Below the pieces are notes generated by a model that worked only from the letters and a program-made list of their open reading frames with translations, ran no database searches and was not told the DNA's origin. A stretch of DNA of 64,000 nt, taken from assembly GCA_038911065.1 (NCBI GenBank), contig JBCKBR010000002.1:14957-78956 (forward strand), read 5' to 3'. The position numbers were made by a program, and so were the translations under genes. Positions 4,248-28,089 of the stretch are shown in pieces (positions within the stretch are counted from its first letter, which is position 1; each line of letters opens with the position of its first letter). Source of the DNA: Gaiellales bacterium (GTDB taxonomy: Bacteria > Actinomycetota > Thermoleophilia > Gaiellales > F1-60-MAGs149).

Positions 4248-5603
4248 TCATCCGCACTCGTTGCTCGCCGCGTCCAACTCGGCGAGAGCGCTCGCCGCAT
4301 TCTCATTACCGAGTGCTGCGGCCTGCTCGTACCAGGCGCGTGCAGCATCCCGATCACCCGCCTTTTCGGCGAGCACACCAAGATTAGTCATCGCCTCCGG
4401 ATGATCGAGTGTGGTGGCCTGCTCGTACCAGGAGCGTGCGGCATCCAAGTCGCCCGCCTCTTCGGCGAGTAAGCCAAGATTAGTCATCGCCATCGGATTA
4501 CCGGGGTTGGCGGCTAGCTCGTACCAGGCGCGTGCGGCATCCAAGTCACCTGCTCCTTCGGCGAGCACGCCAAGATTAGTCATCGCCTTCGGATTACCGA
4601 GTTGGGCGGCCTGCTCGTACCAGGCGCGTGCAACATCCAATTCACCCACCTCTTCGGCGAGTAAACCAAGATTAGTCATCGCCTGCGGTTGATCGAGTGT
4701 GGCGGCCTGCTCGTACCAGGCGCGTGCGGCATCCAAGTCGCCCCCCTCTTTGGCGAGCAAACCAAGATTAAACATCGCCTGCGGATCATCGAATTGGGCG
4801 GCCTGCTCCCACCACGCGCGTGCACCCTCCAAGTCACCCGCAGAGTGGGCGAGCCAACCAAGATTATTCATCGCCTCCGGGTCATCGAGTGTGGCGGCCT
4901 GCTCGTACCAGGCGCGTGCGGCATCCATGTCGCCCGCCTCTTCGGCGAGCACGCCAAGATTGAACATCGCCTTCGGATTACCGAGTTTGGCGGCCTGCTC
5001 ATACCACGCGCGTGCCACATCCATGTCGCCCGCCTCTTCGGCGAGCACTCCAAGATTAGTCATCGCCTCCGGATGGTTGAGCGTGGCGGCCTGCTCCCAC
5101 CAGGTGCGTGCAGCATCCCGATCACCCGCCTCATAGGCGAGCCAACCAAGCCTATTGATCGCCTTCGGATGATCGAGCGTGGCGGCCTGCTCGTACCAGG
5201 CGCGTGCAGCATCCAGATCACCCGCCTCGTTGGCGAGCACACCAAGATTGATCATCGCATCCTGATTACCGAGGTTGGCGGCCTGCTCCCACCAGGCGCA
5301 TGCAGCATCCAGATCACCCGCCTGTTGGGCGAGCGCTCCAAGAAGGAACATCGCCTGCGAATCATCGAGCTTTGCGGCCTGCTCCCACCAGGCGCGTGCA
5401 GCAGCCAGATCCCCCAACTTATAGGCGAGCACTTCAAGCAGGACCACGCCAGGATCGTGGGCGGCCTGCTCGTACCAGGCGCGTGCAGCATCCATGTCAC
5501 CCGCCTCTTCGGCGAGCACACCAAGATTGGTCATCGCTTCCGGATCATCAGGCGCAACAGCATCATCCGAACTCTGCTGCTGCTGCTTCTTGAAAAGCCC
5601 CAT
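4248..5603 (-). CDS. Sel1/TPR-like repeat protein A (N-cap + 13 x 32-aa repeats + C-cap)
   Basis: MGLFKKQQQQSSDD leader, 96-bp units encoding [DG]xPxAMxxLGxLAxxAGDLDAARAWYEQAAxL, ending LAELDAASNECG. Confidence 0.92.
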   Translation of the reverse strand: MGLFKKQQQQSSDDAVAPDDPEAMTNLGVLAEEAGDMDAARAWYEQAAHDPGVVLLEVLAYKLGDLAAARAWWEQAAKLDDSQAMFLLGALAQQAGDLDAACAWWEQAANLGNQDAMINLGVLANEAGDLDAARAWYEQAATLDHPKAINRLGWLAYEAGDRDAARTWWEQAATLNHPEAMTNLGVLAEEAGDMDVARAWYEQAAKLGNPKAMFNLGVLAEEAGDMDAARAWYEQAATLDDPEAMNNLGWLAHSAGDLEGARAWWEQAAQFDDPQAMFNLGLLAKEGGDLDAARAWYEQAATLDQPQAMTNLGLLAEEVGELDVARAWYEQAAQLGNPKAMTNLGVLAEGAGDLDAARAWYELAANPGNPMAMTNLGLLAEEAGDLDAARSWYEQATTLDHPEAMTNLGVLAEKAGDRDAARAWYEQAAALGNENAASALAELDAASNECG

Positions 5604-5716
5604 TGCGCCCCCTCCGACCTAGTGTCCCACTCGTAGTCGCGCCGTGCAGCCACTTACACATAATGCCGAGCGTAGAGCAAGGCGGACCTCACATCCGCGG
5701 GGTTGTGGCGTCCGCC
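5604..5716 (-). repeat. shared 5' block of Sel1-repeat genes including palindrome copy 3 (5681-5716)
   Basis: + strand CCTAGTGTCCCACTCGTAGTCGCGCCGTGCAGCCACTTACACATAATGCCGAGCGTAGAGCAAGGCGGAC...GTCCGCC. Related copies at 9221, 17525, 20002, 24032 and 27886. Confidence 0.9.
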
Positions 5717-5926
5717 CTCAGGTGCCCTTTAGGCCGCCACAGGGGAGTGGGGTCAATCTAAAAGGGCCGCGGACACCGCGCCCGGTTTCTCTGTTCACGC
5801 ATACCCGCAAATGCTGCACCCGGGGTCATGGTGTCGTGACTATCGCCTACAGCACTCTCCAACCAACACGCACGACACACAAGACACCGGCCGCGCGTTC
5901 CGAATCGTCTCCAACACTCACCGGCA

Positions 5927-6775
5927 CTAGTTGCTCGCCGCATCCAACTCGGCGAGAGCGCGTGCCGCATCCGCATAACCGAGTTTTGCGGCCTTCTCGT
6001 ACCACGCGCGTGCAGCATCCAGATCACCCGCCTCTTTGGCGAGCACACCAAGATTATTCATCGCCTTCGGATCACCGAGTTTTGCGGCCTTCTCATACCA
6101 CGCGCGTTCAGCATCCAGATCACCCGCCTGATAGGCGAGCAAACCAAGGTTATACATCGCCTCCGGTTTACCGAGTTTGGCGGCCTTCTCATACCACGCG
6201 CGTGCGGCATCCAGATCACCCGCCTTTTCGGCGAGCCAACCAAGATTAGTCATCGCCTCCGGATTACTGAGGTTGGCGGCCTGCTCGTACCACGTGCGTG
6301 CAGCATCCAGATTACCCGCCTCTTCGGCGAGCACTCCAAGATTAGTCATCGCCTTCGGATTACCGAGTTTGGCGGCCTGCTCGTACCACGTGCGTGCAGC
6401 ATCCATGTCGCCCGCCTCTTCGGCGAGCCAACCAAGATTATTGATCGCATCCGAATTACCGAGTTTGGTGGCCTTCTCGTACCAGACGCGTGCCGCATCC
6501 AGATCACCCGCCTTATAGGCGAGCCAACCAAGATTATTCATCGCCTTCGGATTACCGAGTTTGGCGGCCTTCTCATACCACGCGCGTGCAGCATCCAGAT
6601 CACCCGCCTTTTCGGCGAGCCAACCAAGATTGAACATCGCCTCCGGATCATCGAGGTTGGCGGCTGGCGCGCTGATGGCAGCAGAACTCGCGGGCACTAC
6701 CGTCGGTTCCGTAGAACCTCCACACCCAGCAACGATGAAAGCTGAGGCAAACATGAGAAGCAGCAGTCGATTCAT
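5927..6775 (-). CDS. Sel1/TPR-like repeat lipoprotein B (signal peptide II + 7 repeats + C-cap)
   Basis: MNRLLLLMFASAFIVAGC lipobox, 7 repeats, ending LAELDAASN. TAGCGT lies 7 nt before the ATG. Confidence 0.9.
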   Translation of the reverse strand: MNRLLLLMFASAFIVAGCGGSTEPTVVPASSAAISAPAANLDDPEAMFNLGWLAEKAGDLDAARAWYEKAAKLGNPKAMNNLGWLAYKAGDLDAARVWYEKATKLGNSDAINNLGWLAEEAGDMDAARTWYEQAAKLGNPKAMTNLGVLAEEAGNLDAARTWYEQAANLSNPEAMTNLGWLAEKAGDLDAARAWYEKAAKLGKPEAMYNLGLLAYQAGDLDAERAWYEKAAKLGDPKAMNNLGVLAKEAGDLDAARAWYEKAAKLGYADAARALAELDAASN

Positions 6776-6965
6776 ACCGGTGACGCTACTACAACGTGCA
6801 GCACACGATCAGAAAGCCCGGCGCGCTCGACGATGCGGGATCTTTCCCGGGCGGCAGAGTTTCCGTCACAGGGGAAGGGGGCCGGGGTGTATCACGCGTG
6901 ACGCTCCCAACTTAGACCCACCCTTGGTTTTTTTTTACCCACACCATCAAAGACATCGGCAGGGG

Positions 6966-7088
6966 TCAGGTGCGATTTGCTACCGCTGGCTCAATTACTG
7001 ATGGTTTGATCTGAGCGCCGCAGTGGCCACAAAAAGGATCGCCCGCGACACGCGCCGCGCCACAGGACCCGCAGAAGCCATTGGTCAT
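6966..7088 (-). pseudogene. zinc-ribbon N-terminal fragment (40 aa)
   Basis: MTNGFCGSCGAARVAGDPFCGHCGAQ. ATGA overlap with the upstream gene, stops soon after the zinc ribbon. Confidence 0.5.
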
Positions 7089-7732
7089 GTAGCCGTGACT
7101 ACGATCAAGGTTGCGAATGCGATTGCGACGAGGCAGATTGGGCCAAACGCCCAGACCACGCTCCAGCGGGTCCAGCATCGAGTGGGTGCCGTGCCCCCGC
7201 TCAGCGCATTCAATGCTCCGCGCAGCCGCTGCAACGTGTGTCCGTACATAAAGAACACCACAATCGCTGCAATAGAACCAAGGTAGGGAATATACGCCAA
7301 AGCGAACCACGTCGTGTAGCGTCTCGTGTTGATTCCCTCAGTGCCTGCCTTCTTTGCGACGAGGTCAATATCGCGCCAGAGATCACGCGCCACAAAGATC
7401 TGCCAAATTGGGACCACCATGCCGAAAGTCTGTCGACCAGGATCGTCACGCCCATCGTGGTTGATCGCGGATATCTGCTTACGGGTGCAGTAGAACCAGT
7501 AAAGCCCCCAGATCCCGGAGGAGATGATGTAGAAGACGATCGCCCGCCCTATTGCGAAGTTCGCCAGATCCGTGCCAGCATCGATTGTCACCGGCGTGGT
7601 CGCAGGCTCGCTGAATGCAGCTGGCATAGCCATCACGCTCTCCGACGATGCGTGCACAACTTTGGCACCACAGACGCCGCAGAACTCGTCGTCTACACCA
7701 ACGCTTGTCTTGCATGTCTGACAGATCATCAT
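7085..7732 (-). CDS. zinc-ribbon + DUF4234-like membrane protein
   Basis: CQTC...FCGVCG ribbon, ISSGIWGLYWFY motif and several TM segments. Confidence 0.75.
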   Translation of the reverse strand: MMICQTCKTSVGVDDEFCGVCGAKVVHASSESVMAMPAAFSEPATTPVTIDAGTDLANFAIGRAIVFYIISSGIWGLYWFYCTRKQISAINHDGRDDPGRQTFGMVVPIWQIFVARDLWRDIDLVAKKAGTEGINTRRYTTWFALAYIPYLGSIAAIVVFFMYGHTLQRLRGALNALSGGTAPTRCWTRWSVVWAFGPICLVAIAFATLIVVTAT

Positions 7733-7795
7733 GCCTCCTTGAAGTTGGCTACGAGTTCCAGTTGATGGTCGCGCGCAGTTGACACCACCGAGTGG

Positions 7796-9031
7796 CTACG
7801 AATCCGGTGGAAAAGCCACTGCATCGAGCACAATTGTCTCGACTGATCCTCCCGCAGTCAACGTGATCGACAGGTCACCGATCTGCCCTAACTTGCGAAT
7901 GCAAGACGTCGGGAAAGTCACGTCTCGCGCGAGAGCTGGCGGGTCGAGTGGATCGATCGTGTCTGTGGTCGCGGTGCATTGCTGCACACCCGAGGCGTCG
8001 ACGATCTGCGTTGGGTCACCCGTTAGGTCAGGTGTCCCATCGAAGTTCGTGTCGATCGAGAACGAGTAACCCACGGGGCCAGCAGGCGTAGCGTGCTGAA
8101 AGTACAACCACGAAATCGTGGTGGTTGCTGCTGTGGTACTGGCCGCTCCGGCGAAGAAGTCGATGCCATCTTCGGCCGCCCCGTTTCCTCCCGAGCGCGT
8201 GTAGACATAGACTTTCTCCCGAATCAGCCGGCTAATGCGGCGCTTGGCTGTCGGGAGCCACGCGGTGAAGTTGGCCATGCGACCAAACACCGTTGGCGCG
8301 GTCGGCTCGCAGGTATTGCGATAGAACGTCCCCCAAGAGACCACACCGACGAGAGTTGCTCGCCCGCCCTGCTTCGCAATTAGAGGACCGCCTGAATCGC
8401 CACTGCAAGCCCCTCCAAAGATCTCTTCATTGGCGAAGTAGCGTCCAGCTGCGATCTGCACCGCTGGCTTGAAGGACGAACCGAAGATCCGTGCGCCGAC
8501 GTCGGAGTAGTCTTTGACTCGGAGCGCTCCGAGCTCACTGGGCTGTTCGGAGTTCTGATTTAGACCCCACCCATAGAGCATCAGCGAAGCATAGAACGTA
8601 GTTCCGCGGCCAGGGAGCCTTGGATATCTTGCTGGCTCGCACCCGGCGGTTACGCGAAGTAGTGCGATGTCATTGACTGAGATCCTCCGTTTGAAATACC
8701 GTGGGTGCGACTCGAATGACAAGACTGCGCAGTAGGCAAGCGTCTTCGTGCTTTTGCCGACACCGACGTAGAGGTTTTCTGGCCGCACGTCGGCGACGCA
8801 GTGAGCAGCCGTGACGACGTATCCACGTGCGATGAACGTGCCAGTGCAATAGCCAGTGATCGTCTTCCCAGCCCAATCTCCCGGTTCATCAACGTACATG
8901 ATTGAAGTGACATAAGGCACGGTATTCCCACTCACTTCGCCAGTGGGGTACGACACTGCACTGGCGGTACTGACCCACGCGAGTGAGGCGGCCACTGCTG
9001 TCATGGCGAGGATCATTCGGCGGGTGTTCAT
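7796..9031 (-). CDS. secreted trypsin-like (S1) serine protease
   Basis: Signal peptide and catalytic motifs TAAHC, NDIALL and GDSGGP. Confidence 0.92.
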   Translation of the reverse strand: MNTRRMILAMTAVAASLAWVSTASAVSYPTGEVSGNTVPYVTSIMYVDEPGDWAGKTITGYCTGTFIARGYVVTAAHCVADVRPENLYVGVGKSTKTLAYCAVLSFESHPRYFKRRISVNDIALLRVTAGCEPARYPRLPGRGTTFYASLMLYGWGLNQNSEQPSELGALRVKDYSDVGARIFGSSFKPAVQIAAGRYFANEEIFGGACSGDSGGPLIAKQGGRATLVGVVSWGTFYRNTCEPTAPTVFGRMANFTAWLPTAKRRISRLIREKVYVYTRSGGNGAAEDGIDFFAGAASTTAATTTISWLYFQHATPAGPVGYSFSIDTNFDGTPDLTGDPTQIVDASGVQQCTATTDTIDPLDPPALARDVTFPTSCIRKLGQIGDLSITLTAGGSVETIVLDAVAFPPDS

Positions 9032-9055
9032 TACGCAATACCTCGCGATAATTGA

Positions 9056-9105
9056 TAACGATTGGTTACTACGGTATACGTTAAAAAGATACGTGTCAAT
9101 CGTTA
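9056..9105 (-). promoter_or_regulatory. sigma70-type promoter of the protease, overlapped by an inverted repeat
   Basis: Minus strand TTGACA (9099-9094)-N17-TACCGT (9076-9071). TAACGATTG at 9056 and CAATCGTTA at 9097 form an inverted repeat. Confidence 0.55.
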
Positions 9106-9220
9106 CTATTCGGGGAACTTCGCCTACGGTTCATCGTGGCCTCCGACCACTCGCCGGGAAGTTCGCGTCTATGTCGACGTGACCGGATCCCTCCGCCCAA
9201 CTGGCCTCACCCAACCCTGA

Positions 9221-9299
9221 CACGCCGTGCAGCCACTTACACATAATGCCGAGCGTAGAGCAAGGCGGACATCACATCCGCGCGGTTGTGGCGTCCGCC
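9221..9299. repeat. orphan copy of the shared 5' block + palindrome copy 4 (9264-9299)
   Basis: Nearly identical to 5641-5716, but not followed by a Sel1 gene. Confidence 0.9.
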
Positions 9300-9445
9300 C
9301 TGCGGGCACGAGAACTCCCCGGCTTTCGACTCCTTTGACCCAGAGCCTTACGACTCCTGAGATCAGGTGATCTTTGCCCGCTGACTGCGGCACTTGAAAA
9401 AGCTGAGGCGGAGCTTTTGGCACCCATAACACGTTCTTCGAGGTT

Positions 9446-9491: not shown

Positions 9492-9495
9492 TGCT

Positions 9496-10119
9496 ATGCT
9501 GAGGCCCGTGTCCAAGTCGCCGACCATCGACGTCTTTCCGATCTTCCGCACCCAGCATCAGGCTGATCTGTTGCGTCTACTGCTGCTTCAACCTGACAGG
9601 AAGTTCACGGGTGTCGAACTGGCTGAGTTGACTGGGCGCCCGGCGTCCACGATCTACCCTGAGCTAAGGCGCCTTGTGAGCGCAGGCATTATCCGCGAGG
9701 AAGAGGTTGCGACTGCGAAGTACTCCCAGGCGGCGACCAACTCACCGTTCTACGAGCACCTTCGTGCCCTGGTCCAGCTCGCGATGGGGCCGGAGGCCGA
9801 ACTTCGCGGCCGCCTATCGACGATCGACGGCATCGATGTCGCAGTCATCTTCGGCTCGTGGGCGCGCGGGACGGATCTTCACCCGACGAGCGACGTTGAC
9901 GTGCTGGTCGTGGGGACTCCCGCCTACGAACAGCTCGCCGACGCCGCGAGCGAGGTCGAGGCGCTGATCGGGCGCGACGTGCAAATCATCTCGTATAGCT
10001 GGGAAGAACTCGACCAGCGCATCGCTGCCGACAGCGGCTTCGTTAAGAACGTGCTCAACGGCCCGATGAAAGCTTTACTCGGCGAAGTAGAGACGCTCCG
10101 CGAGAGGGGGGCAGCATGA
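9496..10119 (+). CDS. HTH + minimal nucleotidyltransferase (MNT) antitoxin
   Basis: N-terminal wHTH and IFGSWARG...SDVDVLVVG (Pol-beta GS..DxD). Confidence 0.88.
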   Translation: MLRPVSKSPTIDVFPIFRTQHQADLLRLLLLQPDRKFTGVELAELTGRPASTIYPELRRLVSAGIIREEEVATAKYSQAATNSPFYEHLRALVQLAMGPEAELRGRLSTIDGIDVAVIFGSWARGTDLHPTSDVDVLVVGTPAYEQLADAASEVEALIGRDVQIISYSWEELDQRIAADSGFVKNVLNGPMKALLGEVETLRERGAA

Positions 10120-10541
10120 TCGACGCAACGACCGAACCTGTCCCGGCGGACGTCAACGAGGCGGCACGCAAGATTGCGCAGGCGATGAAGCACGCAGAGA
10201 GCGCCGAGCAGTGCGTCGACAATGAGAGCGCGTACATCCTGCTCTATTCCGCCGTGCACAAGGCGCTGGCGGCGGTCTTGATCTCGATCGGTCTTCGCGT
10301 CGGTAGTGGTGAGCGCGGCCACGTCGTGCTCATCCGGGAGGCGAAGAAGCATCTTGGAGCGGAGCACGCGGCGCTCCTGAGTCGTCTCGACCGAGCTCGT
10401 CGAAAGCGCAATAGCGTTTCTTACGAGACCGAGCAGATCACGGACGGCGAACTTGTAGCAATGAAGCACGATGCGATGCTGACGTTGGAAACGGCGGGTC
10501 GCTTCGTTCAAGAGCAGAAGACATCGCCCGCATCGGACTGA
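10116..10541 (+). CDS. HEPN domain protein (MNT-HEPN toxin)
   Basis: ATGA overlap with MNT, helical, LYSAVHKA and RRKRNSVSY (Rx4-Y/H motif). Confidence 0.8.
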   Translation: MIDATTEPVPADVNEAARKIAQAMKHAESAEQCVDNESAYILLYSAVHKALAAVLISIGLRVGSGERGHVVLIREAKKHLGAEHAALLSRLDRARRKRNSVSYETEQITDGELVAMKHDAMLTLETAGRFVQEQKTSPASD

Positions 10542-11283: not shown

Positions 11284-11487
11284 TTAGGTCAGCAGGGCAG
11301 CGCTTCGATTTCGCCGCCGAGAGGTGCGAAGCAGCATGCACCGCAGGGAGATGAAGATAGGCGCCAGCCCGCCAGCGAGGTACACGCGCTCGCGCCATGG
11401 GCCGATGTCGCCGAGGAGCGTGACGAGCGCTCGCTCGCAACGTGCCGTCGTTACCTCGTCGTAGTCAGTGAAGCGGCGCTTGTTCAA
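11284..11487 (-). pseudogene. truncated AbiEii-like nucleotidyltransferase toxin
   Basis: 4-nt overlap with AbiEi. VYLAGGLAP (N-terminal GG motif) followed by an unrelated tail and a stop at 67 aa. Confidence 0.6.
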
Positions 11488-12539
11488 AACCCTATGACCT
11501 CCTCGCGCAGCCGATCTGCCTGCTCTCGACCTCGCCGCGGATCTTGGCGAAGGTCGAGGAACAGTCGGAACGGGTTGGCTGTCCAGACGTCGCCGACCTT
11601 TTGCCTGAGCACCAGCGGCGTGTCACCCATAGCTTGCCGCAAAACGATGTTGTGTCCGTCGGCGACTTGGTCGGCACGCGCCGTGTCAACGACATAGTCC
11701 AACGCGACCGTCTCGGTTACCCAGACTTCCGTGATGGGAATCGCGGTGATGAACGGAGCTAGTCGGGCTGCTCCCGCCGCGCCCGTGACCGCGTGTTCGA
11801 TCTTCGCTTTCGTGAGCAGTTCGCTCAACGCTTGTGCCTGCGTGCTGGGATCGCGAGCGAGCCGGAATGCTCGCACCTGATTGACGCCGCGATCGCGCAT
11901 CTCCTCGGCCCAGAGATCGAGGAGAGCGGTCGGGTTCGTGAGGAGACGCGTTCGCTGAGGTCCAGCGCCTTCGACCTGGATCAGGCCCTCGCGTTCGAGT
12001 CGAGTGAACAATCGGTGCGCTAGCCCGACAGAAACCCCAGCGGCTTCGGCGAGGTCGTGCACCTGCCACTGCCGTTCGGGGTCGGCCAGTAGTACCTGGG
12101 TCGCCACTCCCGCCTTACCCATCAGCTTGACCGGAGGTGCTCCTGTTGTCGGCGCTGGCGTTGCGCGCCTCCCCTCCGTCCACAGGAAGAGGCCGGGAAG
12201 CTCGATCCTGATGTTCCCGGTTGCATCGATGACGGCGACGCCAGCCTCTTCCAGGATCTGGAGGGCTTCTGCGGTCGTTGTCCGAGCGACAAGGAGCAGG
12301 TGCGTTCCCTCGGGCAGGCCTTCGGCGTACGCGGCGTGCTGCCGTGCCGCGGAAGCATTCGTGACCCGTTGGGTCTTCACCTCGACCACGTGGGTCACGT
12401 CTCCGGCACGGACGACGACGTCTCGGTGCCGCTTGGTGGCTGGCGTCGGCTCAACGCCGACCCTCGGGACGCCCTGAAGGATCCTGAGCGTCTCACGCTC
12501 AAGCGGTCCTTGGATATTCACTAAATCATTCTTATTCAC
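11484..12539 (-). CDS. type IV TA AbiEi-family antitoxin (AbiEi_2-like)
   Basis: VVEVK N-domain, wHTH (DLAEAAGVSVGLAHR), LLDLWAEE, AVTGAAGAARLAPF and NPFRLFLDL...RGREQADRL. Confidence 0.82.
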   Translation of the reverse strand: MNKNDLVNIQGPLERETLRILQGVPRVGVEPTPATKRHRDVVVRAGDVTHVVEVKTQRVTNASAARQHAAYAEGLPEGTHLLLVARTTTAEALQILEEAGVAVIDATGNIRIELPGLFLWTEGRRATPAPTTGAPPVKLMGKAGVATQVLLADPERQWQVHDLAEAAGVSVGLAHRLFTRLEREGLIQVEGAGPQRTRLLTNPTALLDLWAEEMRDRGVNQVRAFRLARDPSTQAQALSELLTKAKIEHAVTGAAGAARLAPFITAIPITEVWVTETVALDYVVDTARADQVADGHNIVLRQAMGDTPLVLRQKVGDVWTANPFRLFLDLRQDPRRGREQADRLREEVIGF

Positions 12540-17524: not shown

Positions 17525-17582
17525 GCCCCCGCCTTACTTAGTGTCCCACTAGTAGTCGCGCACGCCGTGCAGCCACTTACAC
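17525..17582 (-). repeat. shared 5' block (without palindrome)
   Basis: CTTAGTGTCCCACTAGTAGTCGCGCACGCCGTGCAGCCACTTACAC. Confidence 0.85.
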
Positions 17583-17749
17583 CATGAATAGCCCCCGGGT
17601 TCCATAGCGTCTGTTTTTGTTTGCTGACCTGCCAGGACAGGCGTCAGTGTTCCGAGTTATTGAGTGGCGTTGACGCGGCTTAGAGAGCGCTGGGCGGCAA
17701 GCCTGGCTGGGGGCGTGGCATGCACTTCGATCAAACGCAGTGCGTGTGT

Positions 17750-19837: not shown

Positions 19838-20001
19838 GGTGGCTGGCTCCTTTCGTGGTGGGCGGCCGGCTCGTACCTGACGCGCACAACATCCAGATCC
19901 CCCGCCTCATAGGCGATCTCACCAAGATTGATCATCGCATCCGGATCATCAGACGCGACAGCATCATCCGAACTCTGCTGCGGCTTCTCGAAAAGCCCCA
20001 T
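19834..20001 (-). pseudogene. N-cap + single repeat stub (55 aa)
   Basis: MGLFEKPQQSSDDAVASDDPDAMINLGEIAYEAGDLDVVRVRYEPAAHHERSQPP*. Its TGA overlaps the ATG of gene D. Confidence 0.75.
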
Positions 20002-20112
20002 TGCGCCGCCTCCGACCTAGGGTTCCACTCGTAGTCGCGCACGCCGTGCAGCCGCTTACACGCAATGGCGAGTGTAGAGCAGGGCGGACATCACATCCGC
20101 GCGGTGGTGGCG
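20002..20112 (-). repeat. shared 5' block + degenerate palindrome (20083-20112)
   Basis: CCTAGGGTTCCACTCGTAGTCGCGCACGCCGTGCAGCCGCTTACAC...GTAGAGCAGGGCGGACATCACATCCGCGCGGTGGTGGCG. Confidence 0.85.
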
Positions 20113-20276: not shown

Positions 20277-21152
20277 CTAGTTGCTCGACGCATCCAACTC
20301 GGCGAGCCACTTCGCCGCATCCTCATCACCGAGTTTGGCGGCCTTCTCGAACCACGCGCGTGCCGCATCTAGGTCACCCGCCTCTTCGGCGAGCGCTCCA
20401 AGCCCATACATCGCAACCGGATCACCGAGTTTGGCGGCCTGCTCGAGCCAGACGCGTGTCGCATCCAGATCCCCCGCCTCTTCGGCGAGCACTCCAAGGT
20501 GGATCATCGCCTTGGGATCATCGAGTGTGGCGGCCTGCTCGTACCAAGCGCGTGCAGCATCCTCATCACTCGCCTCATAGGCGAGCAAACCAAGACTAGT
20601 CATCGCCTCCGGAACACCGAGTTTGGCAGCCTGTTCCCACCACGCGCGTGCAACATCTAGGTCACCCGCCTCTTCGGCGAGCGCTCCAAGATTGAATATC
20701 GCATCCGGTTGATCGAGGTTGGCGGCCTTCTCGTACCAGACGCGCCCCGCATCCAGATCACCCGCCTCATAGGCGAGCACTCCAAGACTAGTCATCGCAT
20801 CCGGATCACCGAGTTTGGCGGCCTTCTCCCACCAGGCGTGAGCAGCATCCAGATCCCCCGCCTTTTCGGCGAGCACACCAAGACGGAACATGGCATCCGG
20901 ATGATCGAGTGTGGCGGCCTGCTCGTAGCAGGTGCGTGCAGCATCCAGGTCACCCGCCTCTTCGGCGAGAAAACCAAGATAGAGCATCGCATCCGGATCA
21001 CCGAGTTTGGCGGCCTTCTCCCACCAGACGCGTGCAGCATCCGTATCACCCGCCTCATAGGCGAGCTCACCAAGATCGGTCATCGCTTCCGGATCAGCAG
21101 TGGCAACAACATCATCCGAACTCTGCTGCTGCTGCTTCTTGAAGAGCCCCAT
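20277..21152 (-). CDS. Sel1-repeat protein E (N-cap + 8 repeats + C-cap)
   Basis: MGLFKKQQQQSSDD at 21152 with GGAGG RBS, ending LAELDASSN. Confidence 0.92.
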   Translation of the reverse strand: MGLFKKQQQQSSDDVVATADPEAMTDLGELAYEAGDTDAARVWWEKAAKLGDPDAMLYLGFLAEEAGDLDAARTCYEQAATLDHPDAMFRLGVLAEKAGDLDAAHAWWEKAAKLGDPDAMTSLGVLAYEAGDLDAGRVWYEKAANLDQPDAIFNLGALAEEAGDLDVARAWWEQAAKLGVPEAMTSLGLLAYEASDEDAARAWYEQAATLDDPKAMIHLGVLAEEAGDLDATRVWLEQAAKLGDPVAMYGLGALAEEAGDLDAARAWFEKAAKLGDEDAAKWLAELDASSN

Positions 21153-21295
21153 CACGCGCCTCCTAGGTGGGTTCACCCTAGAGTCGATCCACACGGCATT
21201 TGGCTTACGCAGTGTATTGAATCGGACGCACGTGTGGAGGGGTATTGTCGGGTGATTGACCACACGGGGAGCTTGGTGCGTGCGCCAGAATCACT

Positions 21296-22075: not shown

Positions 22076-24031
22076 TCATCCGCACTCGTTGCTCGACGCA
22101 TCCAACTCGGCGAGGTTGCTCGCCGCATCCTCATCACCGAGTGTGGCGGCCTGCTCCCACCACGCGCGTGCAGCATCCAGGTCACCCGCCTGTTGGGCGA
22201 GCACTCCAAGATTGTTCATCGCTTCCGGTTGATCGAGTGTGGCGGCCTGCTCGTACCAGGCGCGTGCAGCATCCAGGTCACCCGCCTGTTGGGCGAGCAA
22301 ACCAAGACTATTCATCGCATCCGGTTGATCGAGTGCTGCGGCCTGCTCTAACCAGGCGCGTGCACCATCCAGGTCACCCGCATCTTCGGCGAGCACACCA
22401 AGAAGGATCATCGCACCCGGATCACCGAGGTTGGCGGCCTGCTCCCCCCACGCGCGTGCAGCATCCAGGTCACCCGCCTTTTCGGCGAGCACACCAAGAA
22501 GGACCATGGCACCCGGATGATCGAGTGTGGCGGCCTGCTCGTACCAGGCGCGTGCAGCATCCATGTCACCCGCCTCTTTGGCGAGCCCACCAAGATTGAA
22601 CATCGCATCCGGATGATCGAGTGTGGCGGCCTGCTCGTACCAGGCGCGTTCAGCATCCAGGTCACCCGCCTCATAGGCGAGCCGCCCAAGATTAGTCATC
22701 GCATCCGGATCATCGAGTGTGGCGGCCTTCTCCCACCACGCGCGTGCAGCATCCAGGTCACCCGCCTCATAGGCGAGAACGCCGAGATTGTACATCGCCT
22801 GCGTTTGATCGAGTGTGGCGGCCTTCTCCCACCACGCGCGTGCAGCATCCAGGTCACCCGCCTCTTTGGCGAGCGCACCAAGACGATTCATCGCATCCGG
22901 ATCATCGAGTGTGGCGGCCTGCTCTAACCAGGCGCGTGCACCATTCAGATCACCCTCCTCATGGGCGAGCACTCCAAGATTGAACATGGCATCCGGTTGA
23001 TCGAGTTTGGCGGCCTGCTCGTACCAGGCGCGCGCCGCATCCAAGTCACCCGCCTCTTTGGCGAGCACACCAAGAAGGGCCATCGCAGTCGGATCATCGT
23101 GTTTGGCGGCCTGCTCCCACCAGGCGCGTGCAGCATCCCGATCACCCGCCTGTTCGGCGAGCCCACCAAGTTTGGTCATCGCCCCCGCGCAACCATCATC
23201 GGCGCCCTGACGAAGCCACGAGCACGCTGCCTCAACGTCACCCTCATCTAGGGCGCTTTCCACGAGCGCCCACATCGCATCGCTACTTCCACGCTCGGCG
23301 TTGCACTCCAACATATTCTGCCACGCACCCTCATCGCCACTCAAGATGGCTTCCATGTCGATACCAGACATCCCCATCGGAGGGGGCCATCTTCCAGCCT
23401 TTTCCAACCACGCCCGGTACGCCTTCTTGTCGCCGGCGTCGTAGGCGAGATCTGCGAGATTTTCCATCGCGTCATAGGCGCCGTCATACGCGTCGCTCGT
23501 GTCTGCGGCCTTCTGCCACCACGAGCGGGCTCCATCCATGTCCCCCGCCTCCTTGGCGAGGTCTCCGAGGTGGAGCATTCCCGTCGCGGCACCGAGGTCT
23601 GCAAGTTGTCCCCACCATGAGCGCGCCGCATCCACGTCGCCCAGCTTGTCGGCAAGATAGCCGAGCTTATACAGCCCAGTCGTATCGCCGTGCTCTAGAG
23701 CCTTCAGGTACCACTCGCGTGCCTTATCAAAATCGGCTTCTTCACTCTCGAACCGTACGCCGAGACCAACCATCGCGCCTGCGTGGCCGAGCGCTGCCGC
23801 CTTCCCAAACCACTCACGTGCCGCAGCAGTATCGTTCACATAGAGCGCGAAATCTCCAAGGTGGTCCATCGCGTCTGCGCTGCCAAGGTCTGCGGCCTGC
23901 TGATACCAGTTTCGCGCCGCATCCTTATCACCCGCCTCATAGGCGAGCCCACCAAGTTTGATCATCGCTTCCGGATCATCAGGCGCAACATCATCATCCG
24001 AACTCTGCTGCTTCTTGAAAAGCCCCATCAC
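22076..24031 (-). CDS. Sel1-repeat protein F (N-cap + ~18 repeats + C-cap)
   Basis: Repeats 2-7 are diverged, repeats 8-18 are of the homogeneous 96-bp type. Ends LAELDASSNECG. Confidence 0.92.
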   Translation of the reverse strand: MMGLFKKQQSSDDDVAPDDPEAMIKLGGLAYEAGDKDAARNWYQQAADLGSADAMDHLGDFALYVNDTAAAREWFGKAAALGHAGAMVGLGVRFESEEADFDKAREWYLKALEHGDTTGLYKLGYLADKLGDVDAARSWWGQLADLGAATGMLHLGDLAKEAGDMDGARSWWQKAADTSDAYDGAYDAMENLADLAYDAGDKKAYRAWLEKAGRWPPPMGMSGIDMEAILSGDEGAWQNMLECNAERGSSDAMWALVESALDEGDVEAACSWLRQGADDGCAGAMTKLGGLAEQAGDRDAARAWWEQAAKHDDPTAMALLGVLAKEAGDLDAARAWYEQAAKLDQPDAMFNLGVLAHEEGDLNGARAWLEQAATLDDPDAMNRLGALAKEAGDLDAARAWWEKAATLDQTQAMYNLGVLAYEAGDLDAARAWWEKAATLDDPDAMTNLGRLAYEAGDLDAERAWYEQAATLDHPDAMFNLGGLAKEAGDMDAARAWYEQAATLDHPGAMVLLGVLAEKAGDLDAARAWGEQAANLGDPGAMILLGVLAEDAGDLDGARAWLEQAAALDQPDAMNSLGLLAQQAGDLDAARAWYEQAATLDQPEAMNNLGVLAQQAGDLDAARAWWEQAATLGDEDAASNLAELDASSNECG

Positions 24032-24136
24032 GCCCCCGCCTACTTAGTGTCCCACTAGTAGTCGCGCACGGCGGGCAGCACCTTACACAAAATGCCGAGT
24101 GTAGAGCAGGGCGGACATCAGATCCGCGTGGTTGTG
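24032..24136 (-). repeat. shared 5' block + partial palindrome (24110-24136)
   Basis: CTTAGTGTCCCACTAGTAGTCGCGCACGG...CTTACACAAAATGCCGAGTGTAGAGCAGGGCGGACATCAGATCCGCGTGGTTGTG. Confidence 0.85.
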
Positions 24137-24333
24137 CATAGCGTTGAAAACAGCCGCATCTGCTCCACAGTCGTGGCTCTTGTTTGCAACAATGCGCGGT
24201 CCGCAACGACAACCGCCACACACTGCGCTTGGCACTCAGCTAGGGCGAAGTGAAACGCGGCGCGGTGCTTGAGGCGATATCGCGCCGCCTGTGAAGAGCT
24301 GATGGTCGAAGACCTCGCAGCTCGCGACGAGCG

Positions 24334-27300
24334 CTAAGCGTCTCGGCGAATTGCCTCGACGATCTTGCGTACGACTTCATCGTCATCCGCGGCGAGCGAT
24401 TTAAGGAGATCGGGCGAGAGCAGCTTGCCGGCCGTGCGAACGAGCTCGCGACGTGCTGTGAAGATGCGGCTTGAGGCCAGTGCTTGTTGCGCGTCGGCGT
24501 GAAGCAGTGGGGCCTTCTTCGCAAGCGCCCGAGGGACGTCTACTGAACGGTGTTCGGCGAGCGCGACTTGTTGAGCGGGGGTAAGCGACTTGAGAAGTGC
24601 ATCGTCGGCGATGATCGCTAGTAGGTCGCCTTGGTCCTGTGCAGCAATACGGGCGTCAACGTCTCCTGTTCCGGATTGTGCGGCATTCGCTTTGCGGGGT
24701 CTCTTCGCTGCTGCAGAGGGCGTTCGCTTGGTGGGGGCCGGCTTCGCGGTGCTCCACGAATTGACGATCTTGGACACGCCTTCGTCATCGTCATCCTCGA
24801 GGATCGTGCGCGCTTCGTCGCAGAGTGCAGCTGGTCCGATGCTGGCTAGCGCACGGCGGGCGACGAATAGTTTCGACTTCGCGATCGCGACTTGCGTCTC
24901 TGGAGCAAGCGTTGCGGCCTTGGTGGCAAGTGCCCGCGCGGACTTGGGGTCGGCCCGACGTACGAGATCAGCCTGTTGCTGAGGTGTTGCAGCGAGAAGA
25001 AGGTCGTTGTTTGCAATCACCGCCTGAATGGTGGCTGCATCGGTTGCTGCCATCGCATCCGCGAATGCATCGTCTGACATCGACGCACGCGTGGCATGAC
25101 TAATGGCAATGGAGCTCGCTCGTGGCTCGCGGTTCTGCTCTCGTAGGATGGCCTTGACCTTCCGACTCGTGCTGGCCTCAAGCATACGGATAATCTCGTC
25201 GGGGAGAACATCACGGTTGCGTGCGAGTGCCTCCTCGACAGCCCATTTGTCGCCCTGACGCGCAGACGTGACCGAGTCCCATCCTCGGGAGGCGATCTGT
25301 CCCGTGTTCCATCCGAGGAGGCTGCGGATGCTCGCGGGCGACGTCAGCCGAAGTGCCTCGGGGTTAGTTGCGATGGCGATGACGAGTTCGGTCATGCCAT
25401 CGAACTCCTTCGAAAGCTTGTAGCGGGAACTAGTGGCCGTCGGCTCTAAGACGCGTGTGGTGAGAACATGCTCGACAAGGTCGGGCCATGCAACGCGGTC
25501 GCTCACGTACCTGATGACCGCATTCAGGGTCATGGCATCGACTTGTTCTCTTGATACGCCACTAGCGTGTTTGTTGGTGTCGGCCCCCGTTGTCGTCAAT
25601 ATGGCTTCGCGCCCTTGAATAGCCGCGGCGACGCGTGGGTTTGAGTGGGCACGAAGCTTCTTCCGATCCATCTCGCTCAGAGCGTCATAGCGTTGTTCGA
25701 CGAGAAGTGTCGCGGATTCCGGAAGCAGTCCCCGTATGAATATGCGCTTTGCGTGTGGGGTCATCGCCGGAAACGAGGACAGCATGAGCTTCTGAATCCG
25801 AACCAGTTCCCTCCGCCGAGCAGAACGTTCGTCCGCCAGATCGTCGCCCCAGGAATGTCCCTTCGTGGTGACCCACGTCGAAACTTCGGTCACCAGGTTC
25901 TGGAGTTGGTTTGGGAGATATCCAGCGCTTTGCAGAACGAGATCGAGCGAGCGATCCTTCCCACGGTGGCGGGCCTGAATTTCCTCGCGGAATTGATCGC
26001 TGCTGAGAGCGGCAATCTCAGTGAGTTCCGCGGGAAGTGCCTGTGGATCGCCAGGACGAGAGTTGGTTGGTCTCTCATCGGCGCTCTTGTCAACGTTTGC
26101 GGCAGCGCGCGCTGCTTCCGCTTGATGCTTGTCGGCAAGTTGGCGCACTGCCTTTGGAAGGTCTCGTCGGGCCGCTACGGCCGTCCTGATTCGTAACTCC
26201 GGATCTGTGGCGAGAGCCTTGATGAGCGAATTGAATCCCGAGCCCGTGATGTTTTTGAGATCTGGGCGAGTTGCGACGGTGTGCCTGACGCGCGGATCGG
26301 CATCCTCGGCGAGCTGTGTCATGACGCGCTTGGCATGCTTGTTGTCGGACGGAATGAGTAGCGCGGCTAGGAGTTTGCTGGCAGGTTTGAAGCGTTCGAT
26401 ACGCGCCGTCACTCCGCCTGCTGGGAGTTTTGATGCGTTGGAGCTCAGCACGGTGAGGGCAACGACATCGTCCTCGTCTCCGAGCAATTCGTCTGCGATC
26501 GCTTTGGTGATATCACCGCGCTCGGCAATAGCTTCGCGTACATACGGATCCGAGTGTCGAGCGAGGTGCGAGATCGCAAAGCGCGGGAGGTCTGATCGCT
26601 CGGCCAGCAGAATGTGTGTGGCATTTGATAGATCGAGGAGCGAGCGAACCGCATCGTCGTCGATGTCGAGTCGTTCGATGAGAGCGCGTCGCGCCCATGC
26701 GAGTGCTGTCTCGCGATCAGCGACTTCTGGGTCCTGGTTCGCCGCCACAGAACTTTCGGTGATGCGTAACAGTTCGACGGCGGTCGGAACAGGCTGGGAG
26801 CGAATAGCGGAGAGCAGCACGACGATGCTTGGATCGTGCGCTGCTTGGAGTACCAGCGTATTCGGAGCGTCAGGTCGTCGAACAATGCGGCTCCGGACGA
26901 TGGCATCACGGTGCGACGCTAGGCGCTTGAGATAACTCGTGTCGAGCTCGTCGTGCGCTGCTCGCCATCGTTCGCGGTACGGAGCGCGCGTACGGTCACG
27001 GGTCATTCCCTCGATGCTGTATGCGGTGTCATCCTGAATGCGCCGATCAGGTGCGAGTTCTGCGAACTCGGATGGGCATGCCCGCGACACGGCGGCAGCT
27101 GTGCGTGGTGATCGGTCGCGAGCAAGCGCGGCGAGTACTGGACGATCGGCATCCCAGGCGTGCTTGACCGCGAAGGCGAAGCGGACATCAGGGCTCTTGT
27201 GCGTTGCGAGCGACTCGTGCGCGGCAGTGGGAAGTTCCTCACGAGCACAGATCGCTATCGCTACATCCGGCTTTGCGAATCGGGCGAGCGCTTCAATCGC

Positions 27301-27885
27301 CTGATCTGGCGCGGCCTCAATCTTGGCGAGTGCCTCGAGGACCGGATGAAATGGGTGTGTCGCGATAGTTTCCAGTGCAGCTGATGACAACGCTCCGCGC
27401 TTTAGGAGCGCATGGAAGGCGATATCAGCGCGATGTGGGGGCGACCATGAGTGGGTACCAGGGCGCGAACCGCTGCGCCATCCGAGAAGCGGCAGCGAGA
27501 GATCCGCGGGCAGTTCTCGCCGCATGGCGAGGTCAATCTTTCCTTGGAATCCCGAAGCCGTTGCAATGCGCCGGGCAATGAGGCGCGGCAGCGAGGGCAC
27601 GCTTGTGGCAAGGCTCTCAAGCCAGAATGGCCACGCTCCCTCCGCTCCGTGCTCGCCAAGACAAGTCCTCAACGCGAGCGCCGGCATTGCATACTCGTCT
27701 TCCGGCGAAATTGCGACGCTCCGACCATCAACGATCGCAGCCGTGATCTCGTACCACGCGCGTGCAGCATCCAGATCACCCTCCTCATGGGCGAGCAAAC
27801 CAAGATTGGACATCACATCCGGATCATCAGGCGCAATAACATCATCCGAACTCTGCTGCTGCTTCTTCTTGGAAAGCCCCATCAC
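24334..27885 (-). CDS. large HEAT/leucine-rich-variant repeat protein G, headed by the shared N-cap and one Sel1 module
   Basis: MMGLSKKKQQQSSDD...AARAWYE, then repeats such as LATHKSPDVRFAFA, LARHSDPYVREAIA and LAEDADPRVRHTVA. A ~90-aa C-terminal unit is duplicated. Confidence 0.82.
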   Translation of the reverse strand: MMGLSKKKQQQSSDDVIAPDDPDVMSNLGLLAHEEGDLDAARAWYEITAAIVDGRSVAISPEDEYAMPALALRTCLGEHGAEGAWPFWLESLATSVPSLPRLIARRIATASGFQGKIDLAMRRELPADLSLPLLGWRSGSRPGTHSWSPPHRADIAFHALLKRGALSSAALETIATHPFHPVLEALAKIEAAPDQAIEALARFAKPDVAIAICAREELPTAAHESLATHKSPDVRFAFAVKHAWDADRPVLAALARDRSPRTAAAVSRACPSEFAELAPDRRIQDDTAYSIEGMTRDRTRAPYRERWRAAHDELDTSYLKRLASHRDAIVRSRIVRRPDAPNTLVLQAAHDPSIVVLLSAIRSQPVPTAVELLRITESSVAANQDPEVADRETALAWARRALIERLDIDDDAVRSLLDLSNATHILLAERSDLPRFAISHLARHSDPYVREAIAERGDITKAIADELLGDEDDVVALTVLSSNASKLPAGGVTARIERFKPASKLLAALLIPSDNKHAKRVMTQLAEDADPRVRHTVATRPDLKNITGSGFNSLIKALATDPELRIRTAVAARRDLPKAVRQLADKHQAEAARAAANVDKSADERPTNSRPGDPQALPAELTEIAALSSDQFREEIQARHRGKDRSLDLVLQSAGYLPNQLQNLVTEVSTWVTTKGHSWGDDLADERSARRRELVRIQKLMLSSFPAMTPHAKRIFIRGLLPESATLLVEQRYDALSEMDRKKLRAHSNPRVAAAIQGREAILTTTGADTNKHASGVSREQVDAMTLNAVIRYVSDRVAWPDLVEHVLTTRVLEPTATSSRYKLSKEFDGMTELVIAIATNPEALRLTSPASIRSLLGWNTGQIASRGWDSVTSARQGDKWAVEEALARNRDVLPDEIIRMLEASTSRKVKAILREQNREPRASSIAISHATRASMSDDAFADAMAATDAATIQAVIANNDLLLAATPQQQADLVRRADPKSARALATKAATLAPETQVAIAKSKLFVARRALASIGPAALCDEARTILEDDDDEGVSKIVNSWSTAKPAPTKRTPSAAAKRPRKANAAQSGTGDVDARIAAQDQGDLLAIIADDALLKSLTPAQQVALAEHRSVDVPRALAKKAPLLHADAQQALASSRIFTARRELVRTAGKLLSPDLLKSLAADDDEVVRKIVEAIRRDA

Positions 27886-28089
27886 GCCCTCTCCTACCTG
27901 GTGTCCTACCAGTAGTCGCGCACGCCGTGATGGCTGCTACGGAGTTCGCGGTGTGAATCTATCACGACCCAAGTCGTAATCATCATGCTGTTACGATCTA
28001 AGCATGGCTGCCTCTTTGCCATCGTCTGCGCGCCCGTTAGATCAACTCGACAAGACGCTCGGATTCGTCCGCATGGCGAGGGAGTACAA

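Follow-up and report, generated by a model that had tools for sequence, protein, structure and literature searches.

We found that the 64,000-nucleotide stretch of DNA that we analyzed (the window) carries 65 copies of a 32-residue TPR/Sel1-like unit, spread over seven minus-strand genes (G1 to G7), a stub, and an orphan unit. We think that these genes probably represent a species-level expansion of a TPR/Sel1-like alpha-solenoid family, whose products are putative binders diversifying by recombination over evolutionary and population time.

According to this model, each unit would fold as helix A, a turn, and helix B. Each gene is complete and of an expressed type. Five genes and the stub start with a common 5' module made up of an upstream block, a tag of ~20 residues predicted to be disordered, and unit 1. 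Units would be gained, lost, and exchanged in register through homologous or unequal recombination between the 96-bp repeats, and larger rearrangements (presence or absence of the G5 body; the swap of a C-terminal domain) would use the common 5' module and the units as homology. The proteins would be mostly cytoplasmic binding modules, with G2 as the one lipoprotein. Their specificities may be undergoing diversification, probably so that they can serve as sensors, adaptors, or decoys in conflicts with phages or competitors. The time scale would be that of evolution and populations rather than that of a programmed intracellular mechanism.

Genes, caps, and the upstream block

We counted units with a unit HMM trained on 17 units from G1 and G2. 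It matched 13 units in G1, 7 in G2, 8 in G3, 8 and a half in G4, 8 in G5, 17 in G6 (11 clean and 6 degenerate), and 1 each in G7, the stub, and the orphan; one further match in G6, at E 37, was left out of the count. This confirmed the preliminary description, which had reported about 65 copies in seven co-oriented genes, a stub, and an orphan. Tandem Repeats Finder detected period-96 arrays in G1 to G6, and the Pfam families TPR_2 (78 to 173 bits; cutoff, 27), Sel1 (60 to 108 bits; cutoff, 30.7), and TPR_8 were above their cutoffs in the same six genes. Canonical TPR units have 34 residues and SLR units 36 to 44; at 32 residues (96 bp), the unit described here is shorter than either, and the 36-position Sel1 profile aligns to 32 of its residues. 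The short TPR-like variant is also found in many database homologues. All seven reading frames are intact, and no NTPase domain was found with Pfam in any of the seven proteins.

All the features that follow are on the minus strand. From its ORF, translation, and unit matches, G1 (positions 4248 to 5603; 451 aa) consists of an N-cap, 13 units, and a C-cap (LAELDAASNECG), and it scores 172 bits against TPR_2 and 96 bits against Sel1. G2 (5927 to 6775) is without the N-cap; it starts with a lipoprotein-type signal peptide (..FIVAGC, which we take to be a lipobox), followed by 7 units and a C-cap ending in N and a stop. G3 (15563 to 17524; 653 aa) has an N-cap variant (MGKKKKQQQSSDD), 8 units, a linker, and C-terminal pentapeptide repeats (PF00805, 160 bits). 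G4 (18479 to 19837), which has orthologues in P0004 and L034, joins its own N-terminal segment of ~80 aa to 8.5 units and a 119-aa C-terminal domain without a family assignment. The AlphaFold2 model of that domain was unusable (pLDDT, 34.6), and Atlas gave no usable match. The stub (19834 to 20112) is a 55-aa ORF that overlaps the start of G4 and carries an upstream block with a REP element (20078 to 20112), an N-cap, and one decayed unit (19858 to 19947). Its truncation junction (DVVRVR) was seen again in L034, there with two units.

G5 (20277 to 21155; 292 aa; the listed ORF extends to 21263) has an N-cap, 8 units, and a C-cap ending in N and a stop, and G6 (22076 to 24031; 651 aa) has an N-cap, about 6 degenerate and 11 clean units, and the C-cap ending NECG. 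In G7 (24334 to 27885), the N-cap and a single unit precede a helical, LRV/HEAT-like body of ~1,100 aa, for which Pfam yielded only a weak DUF2336 match. Atlas feature matches of this body to LRV/HEAT clusters (0.90 to 0.91) serve as a lead only. The orphan unit (41931 to 42026; HMM match at 41946 to 42026) has no start codon, is 73% identical to G1.7, and lies immediately upstream of an RDD/zinc-ribbon membrane gene, outside the region of the preliminary description (4248 to 27929).

The six N-caps and four C-caps reported previously were all recovered. The N-cap, MGL[FS]KK..QQSSDD..APDDP (MGKKKK in G3), begins G1, G3, G5, G6, G7, and the stub, and the C-cap, LAELDA[AS]SN, ends G1, G2, G5, and G6; a single GAG/TAG difference separates the NECG ending from the N ending. 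The same 5' module precedes bodies of unrelated kinds: TPR, TPR with a pentapeptide domain, and LRV/HEAT-like.

The shared noncoding 5' block of the preliminary description held up in part. In alignments, ~95 nt are common to G1, the stub, and G6 and ~55 to 60 nt to G3 and G7, with G5 aligning weakly. The blocks lie at 5604 to 5722 for G1 and at about 17525 to 17590, 24032 to 24130, and 27886 to 27945 for G3, G6, and G7, respectively. The distal ~40 nt (5676 to 5722 in G1) is a REP-like palindromic element with 119 blastn matches across the genome, so only the proximal ~60 nt is family specific. Single-sequence folds placed a hairpin beside the ribosome-binding site. We considered the block as an RNA element, and this was not upheld: the consensus fold of the proximal block had 20 pairs, only 2 with compensatory change, and its covariation term was unfavorable. 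The palindrome CTAGTG-GGA-CACTAG (CTGGT..ACCAG in G7) is classed as a lead and not as an RNA element. A sigma-70 promoter scan of positions 4100 to 7000 returned no sites.

We looked for the N-cap and 5' block in relatives, as the preliminary description had suggested. None of 26 other same-genus genomes contained the block DNA, none of 36 other genomes in the family contained the N-cap, and all 13 matches in the source genome fall inside the window. On this basis, the gene family is lineage specific. Elsewhere in its own genome, the only MGL[FS][KR][KR] starts were two implausible arginine-rich frames.

Array turnover and relationships among units

We compared the window with L034, an orthologous locus from another strain. 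Its flanks are 94.9 to 97.8% identical to the window, and its G4 array has 5.5 units versus 8.5 in the window. The last of these units is 99% identical and the inner ones are 83 to 90% identical, with one inner unit nearest to G1.9 (91.7%). L034 is missing the G5 body, and the gene at its G3 position has no pentapeptide domain. The joint that removes the G5 body, skipping 1,150 nt, was present in L034 and in contigs of all four sequencing runs examined. P0004 matches G4 near-perfectly over the C-terminal ~225 residues; its N-terminal part is 63% identical and two units shorter. Among database alleles, P0028 and P0123 agree at 161 of 162 aligned array residues, yet one has a 32-residue unit more than the other, and P0001, P0028, P0042, and P0123 have 194 to 200 of their first 200 residues in common, with 8, 5, 5, and 6 unit matches, respectively. 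The strain variation proposed in the preliminary description was thus found, in both unit number and content. We conclude that the arrays evolve much faster than the surrounding DNA, and these comparisons support change by recombination.

The source genome is a short-read MAG (78% complete, 110 contigs), and the arrays might be chimeras produced by short-read metagenome assembly of repeats. Logan contigs break within the arrays and neither confirm nor refute the unit order of the window. We nevertheless regard such an artifact as extremely improbable. Apart from one exact repeat of 95 nt (G3.7/G3.8), no exact repeat exceeds 57 nt, and we judged these lengths resolvable by large-k assembly; the reading frames are all intact. 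G4 recurs nearly unchanged from about residue 228 to its end in the independent record P0004, and its last unit and C-terminal domain recur also in L034; among the window's arrays, G4 is the only one with an independent assembly. In addition, L033 and L034, two independent metagenome contigs, are 100% identical to each other across 5,367 nt and carry similar arrays of the same kind as those in the window.

Recombination among modules, as originally proposed, was partly supported by the relationships among units. On a tree, the units of G1, G4, G5, and G6 were interspersed, with gene labels clustering no more than shuffled labels, whereas the units of G2 and G3 grouped by gene. Of 61 units, 20 had their nearest neighbor within their own gene. 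No unit pairs were identical; the top DNA identity was 94.8%, with means of 75 to 87%. Within genes, the mean protein identity of units was 63 to 76%, and 85% was reached by 3 of 1,035 unit pairs. We found no collinearity of units between genes (r = -0.08). Mosaicism between genes was not detected by the exact-run test: the longest intergene exact match was 54 nt (null 95th percentile, 47; maximum, 60), inside the null range, and no conversion tract between genes within this genome was significant by run length. Recent exchange among the window's paralogues is therefore not directly demonstrated.

The variant sites are close to linkage equilibrium. All four allele combinations were present in 325 of 378 informative-site pairs, linkage was lost past about 10 nt, and 6 of 78 pairs of hypervariable positions were associated at a P value of <0.05. 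Codon alternatives two or three bases apart occurred at intermediate frequency (GAA 21 versus TAT 9; ACT 12 versus TTC 10). The spread of unit identities was slightly wider than expected without linkage (standard deviation, 0.043; null 99th percentile, 0.040). Recurrent mutation in units that arose in a star-like burst can also produce such a lack of linkage.

This near equilibrium, the interspersed units, and the cap-repeat-cap design accompanied by a stub and an orphan unit would also fit a programmed system, in which a lineage would copy or shuffle donor modules into expression sites during its lifetime, in the manner of lamprey VLRs or pilS/vlsE-type cassettes. We consider this very unlikely, and the data already disfavor it. 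Each array forms a complete gene that has a start of its own and, in most cases, its own upstream block, and there is no silent cassette bank such as the VLR-like repertoire of the preliminary description would call for. The promoterless fragments number only two, and the junction of one of them, the stub, is repeated in another strain. The intergene exact matches and the lack of identical units also argue against copying. Pfam scans of 42 neighbor ORFs (each of at least 70 aa) revealed no domain of a reverse transcriptase, invertase, recombinase, or deaminase, and the sole PADLOC "RT-Protease" match spans the protease domain only. The tRNA scan found no genes, and the Rfam scan of the whole window gave no matches.

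Predicted binding face and genomic setting

We predict an alpha-solenoid superhelix fold for the family. The AlphaFold2 model of G5 (pLDDT, 92.4) has 17 helices, with N-cap residues 1 to 20 disordered. The best Foldseek matches of this model were consensus TPR (CTPR) superhelices and Sel1 proteins (Oxalobacter, LceB, LpnE, and HcpC), and the probability was 1.00 for CTPR, Sel1, and OGT TPR structures.

To place variation on this fold, we used the Pfam TPR_2 register, in which the TPR position equals the unit position minus 1, and the concave ligand-binding positions set beforehand from the excerpted text of Magliery and Regan (PMC1261162). The pN/pS ratio, calculated pairwise among paralogous units as a description and not as a codon-model test, was 1.12 at concave positions (bootstrap, 0.93 to 1.40) versus 0.48 at other positions (0.43 to 0.56). 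Amino acid variation thus appears mainly at the predicted concave ligand-binding groove, drawing on a limited set of alternative residues at the binding face, and the scaffold is conserved.

Since the concave pN/pS ratio is about 1 and not clearly higher, relaxed constraint could account for it. The genes could then be ordinary paralogous TPR scaffold proteins, such as envelope or complex-assembly helpers, that arose by tandem duplication and neutral slippage and have no role in conflict or recognition. G2-like lipoproteins with 5 units, which look housekeeping-like, occur in same-genus species at 4 of 9 relatives' loci examined. Consistently with a scaffold role, NCBIfam gave only generic matches, every one below its cutoff (PilW, GltE, and YbgF), and the four family proteins submitted to PADLOC-DB 2.0 (G1, G3, G4, and G7) matched no families at an E value of ≤1e-4. 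We take this explanation seriously but think it unlikely, as the N-cap genes are restricted to their own lineage and the variable sites coincide with ligand-binding positions set beforehand. In close relatives, the same units occur in fusions with a wide range of unrelated domains, and homologues further away carry them joined to caspase, kinase, and TIR domains. The genes also sit in a variable defense-gene island, a setting that the preliminary description had proposed; it holds Dpd, PDC-S11, a PbeA-like helicase, MNT/HEPN, and MazF. The window also contains a trypsin-like gene at 7796 to 9031.

Another candidate was a sensor-effector arrangement in which the TPR genes would work with the neighboring sce7726-family gene. 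We rejected it: none of the 9 other sce7726 loci examined in the same genus, with about 1.5 kb on each side, contained a unit.

The presence of one disordered tag on three different solenoid bodies could mean that the tag is an export or targeting signal and that the proteins are immunity- or effector-type solenoids of an interbacterial or host-directed system. Legionella Sel1 effectors are among the structural neighbors, and solenoid repeats are named as variable modules of bacterial conflict systems in the excerpted text of PMC7159879. We find this improbable. Scans of the window gave no toxin, secretion system, or polymorphic-toxin gene, and in our own reading the tag seems to be without recognizable signal-peptide features. 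The source bacterium seems to live freely in fresh water or estuaries, an impression that comes solely from freshwater and estuary sequencing runs containing small shares of the window (0.12 at most).

A more specific form of the binder model, which we regard as doubtful, is that the tagged solenoids are a germline-encoded, coregulated recognition set. Their grooves would bind different invader proteins, and the tag would couple all the bodies to one partner or location, making the set an NTPase-free bacterial counterpart of fungal NLR diversification.

Fungi, plants, and animals provide well-documented examples of diversifying repeat receptors; bacterial ones are known mainly within NTPase- or retroelement-based conflict systems. 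Here the same evolutionary behavior is seen in stand-alone bacterial TPR proteins, with unit turnover several-fold above that of the flanks, predicted groove variation, and domain swaps around a constant module, and an orthologous strain pair gives a DNA-level record of the turnover. If the family recognizes invaders or competitors, it would be a simple natural binder library and a tractable case of specificity arising from repeat recombination. If it does not, the locus remains a clear illustration of how repeats evolve, both concertedly and by diversification, in a streamlined freshwater genome.

Comparison with known systems

The lamprey VLR resembles this family only in its layout of cap, variable repeats, and cap. 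VLRs are built of LRRs, not TPRs, and arise by somatic assembly of silent cassettes, in which a cytidine deaminase takes part; we found neither a cassette bank nor, in the ORFs scanned, a deaminase. Unlike diversity-generating retroelements (DGRs), the family has no reverse transcriptase domain among its 42 neighbor ORFs scanned with Pfam.

The structural matches of the G5 model include HcpC of Helicobacter pylori. Hcp proteins are secreted and disulfide rich, with units of ~36 residues; the units here have 32 residues without cysteine pairs, and most of the proteins have no signal peptide. Within the excerpted text of PMC1941758, the Hcp/SLR family is likewise a bacterial multigene Sel1-like family with lineage-specific adaptation.

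The hypervariable bacterial conflict systems, as far as the excerpts of PMC7159879 describe them, similarly combine a constant module with fast-varying ones, and TPR, HEAT, and pentapeptide repeats are among their variable modules. The actinobacterial setting also appears to be common to both, judging from the sources of homologues. Unlike in those systems, our scans found no MoxR-vWA pair, GTPase, STAND NTPase, or DGR beside the family genes, and the constant part is a 20-residue tag.

Fungal NLR repeats (HNWD and the Podospora TPR/ANK NLRs; excerpted text of PMC4986451) are alike in forming a multigene family whose members carry solenoid repeats that resemble one another internally, in strain polymorphism of repeat number, in repeat exchange within and between members, in concave TPR sites that are variable and, here, may be selected, and in combinatorial domain architectures. 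The same excerpts define highly conserved repeats by 85% protein identity, and the units here, with means of 63 to 76% within genes, fall below that value. The present family differs further in having neither a NOD, NACHT, or NB-ARC NTPase nor an N-terminal death effector; it belongs to a bacterium with a small genome, and a tag predicted to be disordered and an upstream block stand in place of the effector domain.

CTPR and DARPin-type libraries share with the family the cap-repeat-cap design, a fixed scaffold with variation at the binding face, and, for CTPR, a structural match. Unlike these libraries, the genes described here are natural, and their variation has evolved over limited residue alternatives.

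Repeat arrays, caps, and upstream block

The 96-bp (32-residue) repeat is carried by seven co-oriented minus-strand ORFs in the window, G1 to G7. We counted units with a profile built on 17 units from G1 and G2. This gave 13 units in G1, 7 in G2, 8 in G3, 8.5 in G4, 8 in G5, and 17 in G6 (11 clean and 6 degenerate), with one each in G7, in a stub upstream of G4, and in an orphan unit (profile match at window 41946-42026); the total of 65 agrees with the approximately 65 copies in the preliminary description. The units matched TPR_2, TPR_8, and Sel1 far over the Pfam cut-offs. The predicted model of G5 (pLDDT 92.4) has 17 helices, with 13-residue helices linked via 3-residue turns; among solved structures, it comes closest to superhelices of consensus TPR and to Sel1 proteins from bacteria. 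The G5 N-cap, its first 20 residues, is disordered in the model, and the model of the G4 C-terminal domain had a pLDDT of 34.6. In searches of same-genus and same-family genomes, the N-cap family was confined to this lineage; other species of the genus had relatives at 35-50% identity only, including a G2-like lipoprotein with 5 units. We concluded that these genes form a lineage-specific family of TPR-like solenoids.

The N-cap is present at the start of G1, G3 (as a variant), G5, G6, G7, and the stub. It contains a microsatellite, (AAG)n(CAG)n, that is in frame and varies in copy number between paralogues (window ~5570-5590, 24005-24020, and the other N-caps), and related-strain contigs differ by 3 nt within this run at 5574 and 24010. 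The C-cap is a single helix A that ends in NECG before the stop codon in G1 and G6 and in N in G2 and G5. One GAG/TAG change separates the two endings, and the DNA beyond still aligns; ~55 nt of 3' flank is common to G1 and G2. A more distant TPR/Sel1 protein, divergently oriented on a contig of another strain (L034:2-1279, minus strand), has MGLF at its start, then basic residues, then a stretch that is acidic and rich in serine (MGLFRRRETETTADESS...). From this start, the N-terminal motif may be wider than the N-cap family.

We confirmed that the 5' block described earlier as shared is common to these genes, but only its proximal ~60 nt is family-specific; the distal ~40 nt is a genome-wide REP-like palindrome. 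Two partial copies of the block lack an N-cap: one of 79 nt (97% identity; window 9223-9301), which precedes the gene for a secreted trypsin-like protease (7796-9031) by ~190 nt, and one of 98 nt (86% identity) on another contig (G000:C6:31539-31647). These copies may point to shared regulation. A small palindrome adjoins the ribosome-binding site in the block, with one compensatory variant, in G7, and weak covariation support; an Rfam search of the whole window found nothing.

The REP-like element (arms GGCGGAC ... GTCCGCC) gave 119 blastn matches across the 2-Mb genome and is commonly arranged in inverted pairs ~75 nt apart. Copies lie at window 5676-5722, 9259-9301, 3062-3101, 4175-4203, and 20078-20112 and on many other contigs. 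In metagenome contigs from sequencing runs, bins with the element had a depth ~10x that of neighboring bins. Several contig joints in related strains coincide with its copies, so the element may indicate where the island rearranges.

Distribution of variation among units

Clustering of units by gene, which the preliminary description held would, if strict, count against shuffling, was seen for G2 and G3 but not for the other four of six arrays. In a maximum-likelihood tree, gene labels changed 4 times for G2 (1 of 500 shuffles was as low) and twice for G3 (0 of 500), whereas G1, G4, G5, and G6 required 11, 7, 7, and 13 changes, not below shuffled labels; this tree is poorly resolved, with good support on 1 of 58 inner branches. 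The nearest neighbor belonged to the same gene for 20 of 61 units, and first units, adjacent to the N-cap, tend to resemble each other across genes. Arrays shared no diagonals with one another (unit-by-unit matrices were flat, 75-90%), and the similarity of one unit pair was no guide to that of the next (r = -0.08; 633 pairs).

We saw no recent exchange between genes of this genome: no exact tract common to two genes was significant. No two units are identical (top identity, 94.8%). The longest exact match between genes was 54 nt; a null built from column-specific mismatch rates reached 47 nt at its 95th percentile and 60 nt at most. The sole outlier was the tandem pair G3.7/G3.8 (units 7 and 8 of G3), at 95 nt. 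The spread of pairwise identity (SD 0.043) barely exceeded the 99th percentile of a no-linkage null (0.040).

All four allele combinations were present at 325 of 378 informative-site pairs, r2 between sites was at background past ~10 nt, and among hypervariable residue positions only 6 of 78 pairs were associated at p < 0.05. Alternative codons, often 2-3 bases apart, stand at intermediate frequency (GAA 21 versus TAT 9; TAC 24 versus TGG 12; ACT 12 versus TTC 10). Recurrent change driven by selection could also have produced such codons. Because repeated independent multi-base changes are unlikely, we read the pattern as suggesting that variants were extensively reassorted among units long ago.

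Across 53 clean units, overall pS was 0.27 and pN was 0.20. Unit positions 4, 8, 9, and 28 are invariant and positions 11, 12, 16, 22, 24, and 26 nearly so; we take these to be the packing core. Variability is highest at positions 1, 3, 6, 7, 10, 13, 30, and 32. In the Pfam TPR_2 alignment, TPR position equals unit position minus 1. Magliery and Regan (PMC1261162) place the most variable TPR positions (2, 5, 9, 12, 13, 33, and 34) on the concave face and give positions 2, 5, 6, 9, 12, and 13 as touching ligand in HOP. With a concave set fixed beforehand from that text (unit positions 1, 3, 6, 7, 10, 13, 14, and 32), pN/pS was 1.12 (bootstrap 0.93-1.40), versus 0.48 (0.43-0.56) at other positions. 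Variation is clearly enriched on the binding face, concentrated at the canonical groove, which falls short of proof of positive selection.

Array turnover between strains

The window covers C2:14957-78956 of its source genome, a short-read MAG (1.99 Mb, 110 contigs, 78% complete). Among its arrays, only G4 has independent records: the last unit and the C-terminal domain recur in L034, and residues ~228 to the end in the protein record P0004. L034 and a second metagenome contig of another strain, L033, were retrieved when the G4 C-terminal domain was used to scan metagenome contigs; the two are 100% identical over 5,367 nt. Unique DNA at the L034 locus (sce7726-family gene, G4 C-domain, HD gene, 169-aa ORF, and GFO gene) is 94.9-97.8% identical to the window, while the G4 orthologue has 5.5 units rather than 8.5. 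Changes in repeat number or order among strain variants had been put forward earlier as a check; these strains differ in unit number and content. The last unit of the orthologue matches G4.8 at 99% identity; its inner units reach at best 83-90% identity with units of G4, and one of them has G1.9 as its nearest unit (91.7%). The L034 gene at the G3 position has an N-cap and 11 units without the pentapeptide domain, and that at the G6 position lacks the N-cap, carries 7 units, and ends differently. The stub (window 19834-20001; L034:3081-3320) has the same truncation junction (DVVRVR.EP) in both strains, with one unit in the window and two in L034. Because the junction recurs in another strain, the stub appears to be an old remnant, perhaps retained, or possibly a small gene.

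The G5 body is missing from the L033/L034 locus, and the same 1,150-nt skip occurred in contigs of all four sequencing runs compared, from 4 studies. Recombination between the two directly repeated 5' modules (upstream block, N-cap, and unit 1) could interconvert the two forms in either direction.

Protein records from other assemblies vary similarly. P0004 is near-perfect to G4 over the final ~225 residues, 63% identical elsewhere, and two units shorter. P0001, P0028, P0042, and P0123 have 194-200 of their first 200 residues in common, with 8, 5, 5, and 6 unit matches, respectively (units ~70% identical); P0028 and P0123 are one 32-residue unit apart and, where their arrays align, match at 161 of 162 residues. 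In close relatives, the N-cap or units are fused to DUF6891, an uncharacterized 150-residue domain, DUF2511, or HAD plus phosphoribosyltransferase; more distant homologues have similar arrays fused to caspase, kinase, and TIR domains. We concluded that the arrays gain, lose, and replace units far faster than flanking DNA changes and that the 5' module and units act as homology for larger rearrangements.

Genomic setting and known systems

The TPR genes lie in a variable island, which also holds sce7726-family and small HD genes and the kinase, DUF3800, FHA, and QueC-Dpd genes described below. Interspersed with the TPR genes are small defense-type genes: a MazF-like toxin (window 3230-3775), an MNT/HEPN pair (PDC-M05A/B; 9496-10541), an AbiEi-like regulator (11484-12539), a PbeA-like helicase (28792-30420), and PDC-S11 (DUF4268; 31193-32167). 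The sce7726-family gene lies between G6 and G5; we rejected it as a linked partner of the arrays: 0 of 9 other same-genus loci contain a unit. Window 33152-41060 holds a DUF3800 gene, three genes for Hanks-type Ser/Thr kinases, and one gene whose product combines two FHA domains with a trypsin-like and a PDZ domain. These kinases matched PD-T4-6 models in PADLOC, perhaps simply because of the kinase fold; PADLOC gave no match for G1, G3, G4, or G7, the four TPR-family proteins submitted. At 45977-63912, QueC is followed by matches to DpdD, DpdJ (1,083 bits), DpdH, DpdG (weak), DpdF, and DpdE, which looks like a 7-deazaguanine DNA-modification (Dpd) defense cluster extending past the window end.

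The orphan unit (41931-42026) is directly upstream of a zinc-ribbon/RDD membrane gene (41109-41855). G2 is directly downstream of a zinc-ribbon/DUF4234 membrane gene (7085-7732), with an apparent zinc-ribbon remnant immediately upstream of G2 (6776-6830). Judged from gene order, lipoprotein-type TPR genes may recurrently pair with zinc-ribbon membrane proteins.

For the module-shuffling repertoire first proposed, a dedicated mechanism was not supported: there was no cassette bank, no recent tract, and no linked enzyme among the scanned window ORFs. The proteins are probably binding modules undergoing diversification in biotic conflict. Among known systems, their behavior is closest to that of fungal NLRs, whose TPR, ANK, and WD repeats evolve in a concerted and diversifying manner (PMC4986451), and to bacterial conflict systems, in which a constant module is combined with variable ones (PMC7159879). 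The G1 to G7 proteins lack the NTPases that define both of these, and internal repeat identity in G1 to G6 is lower.
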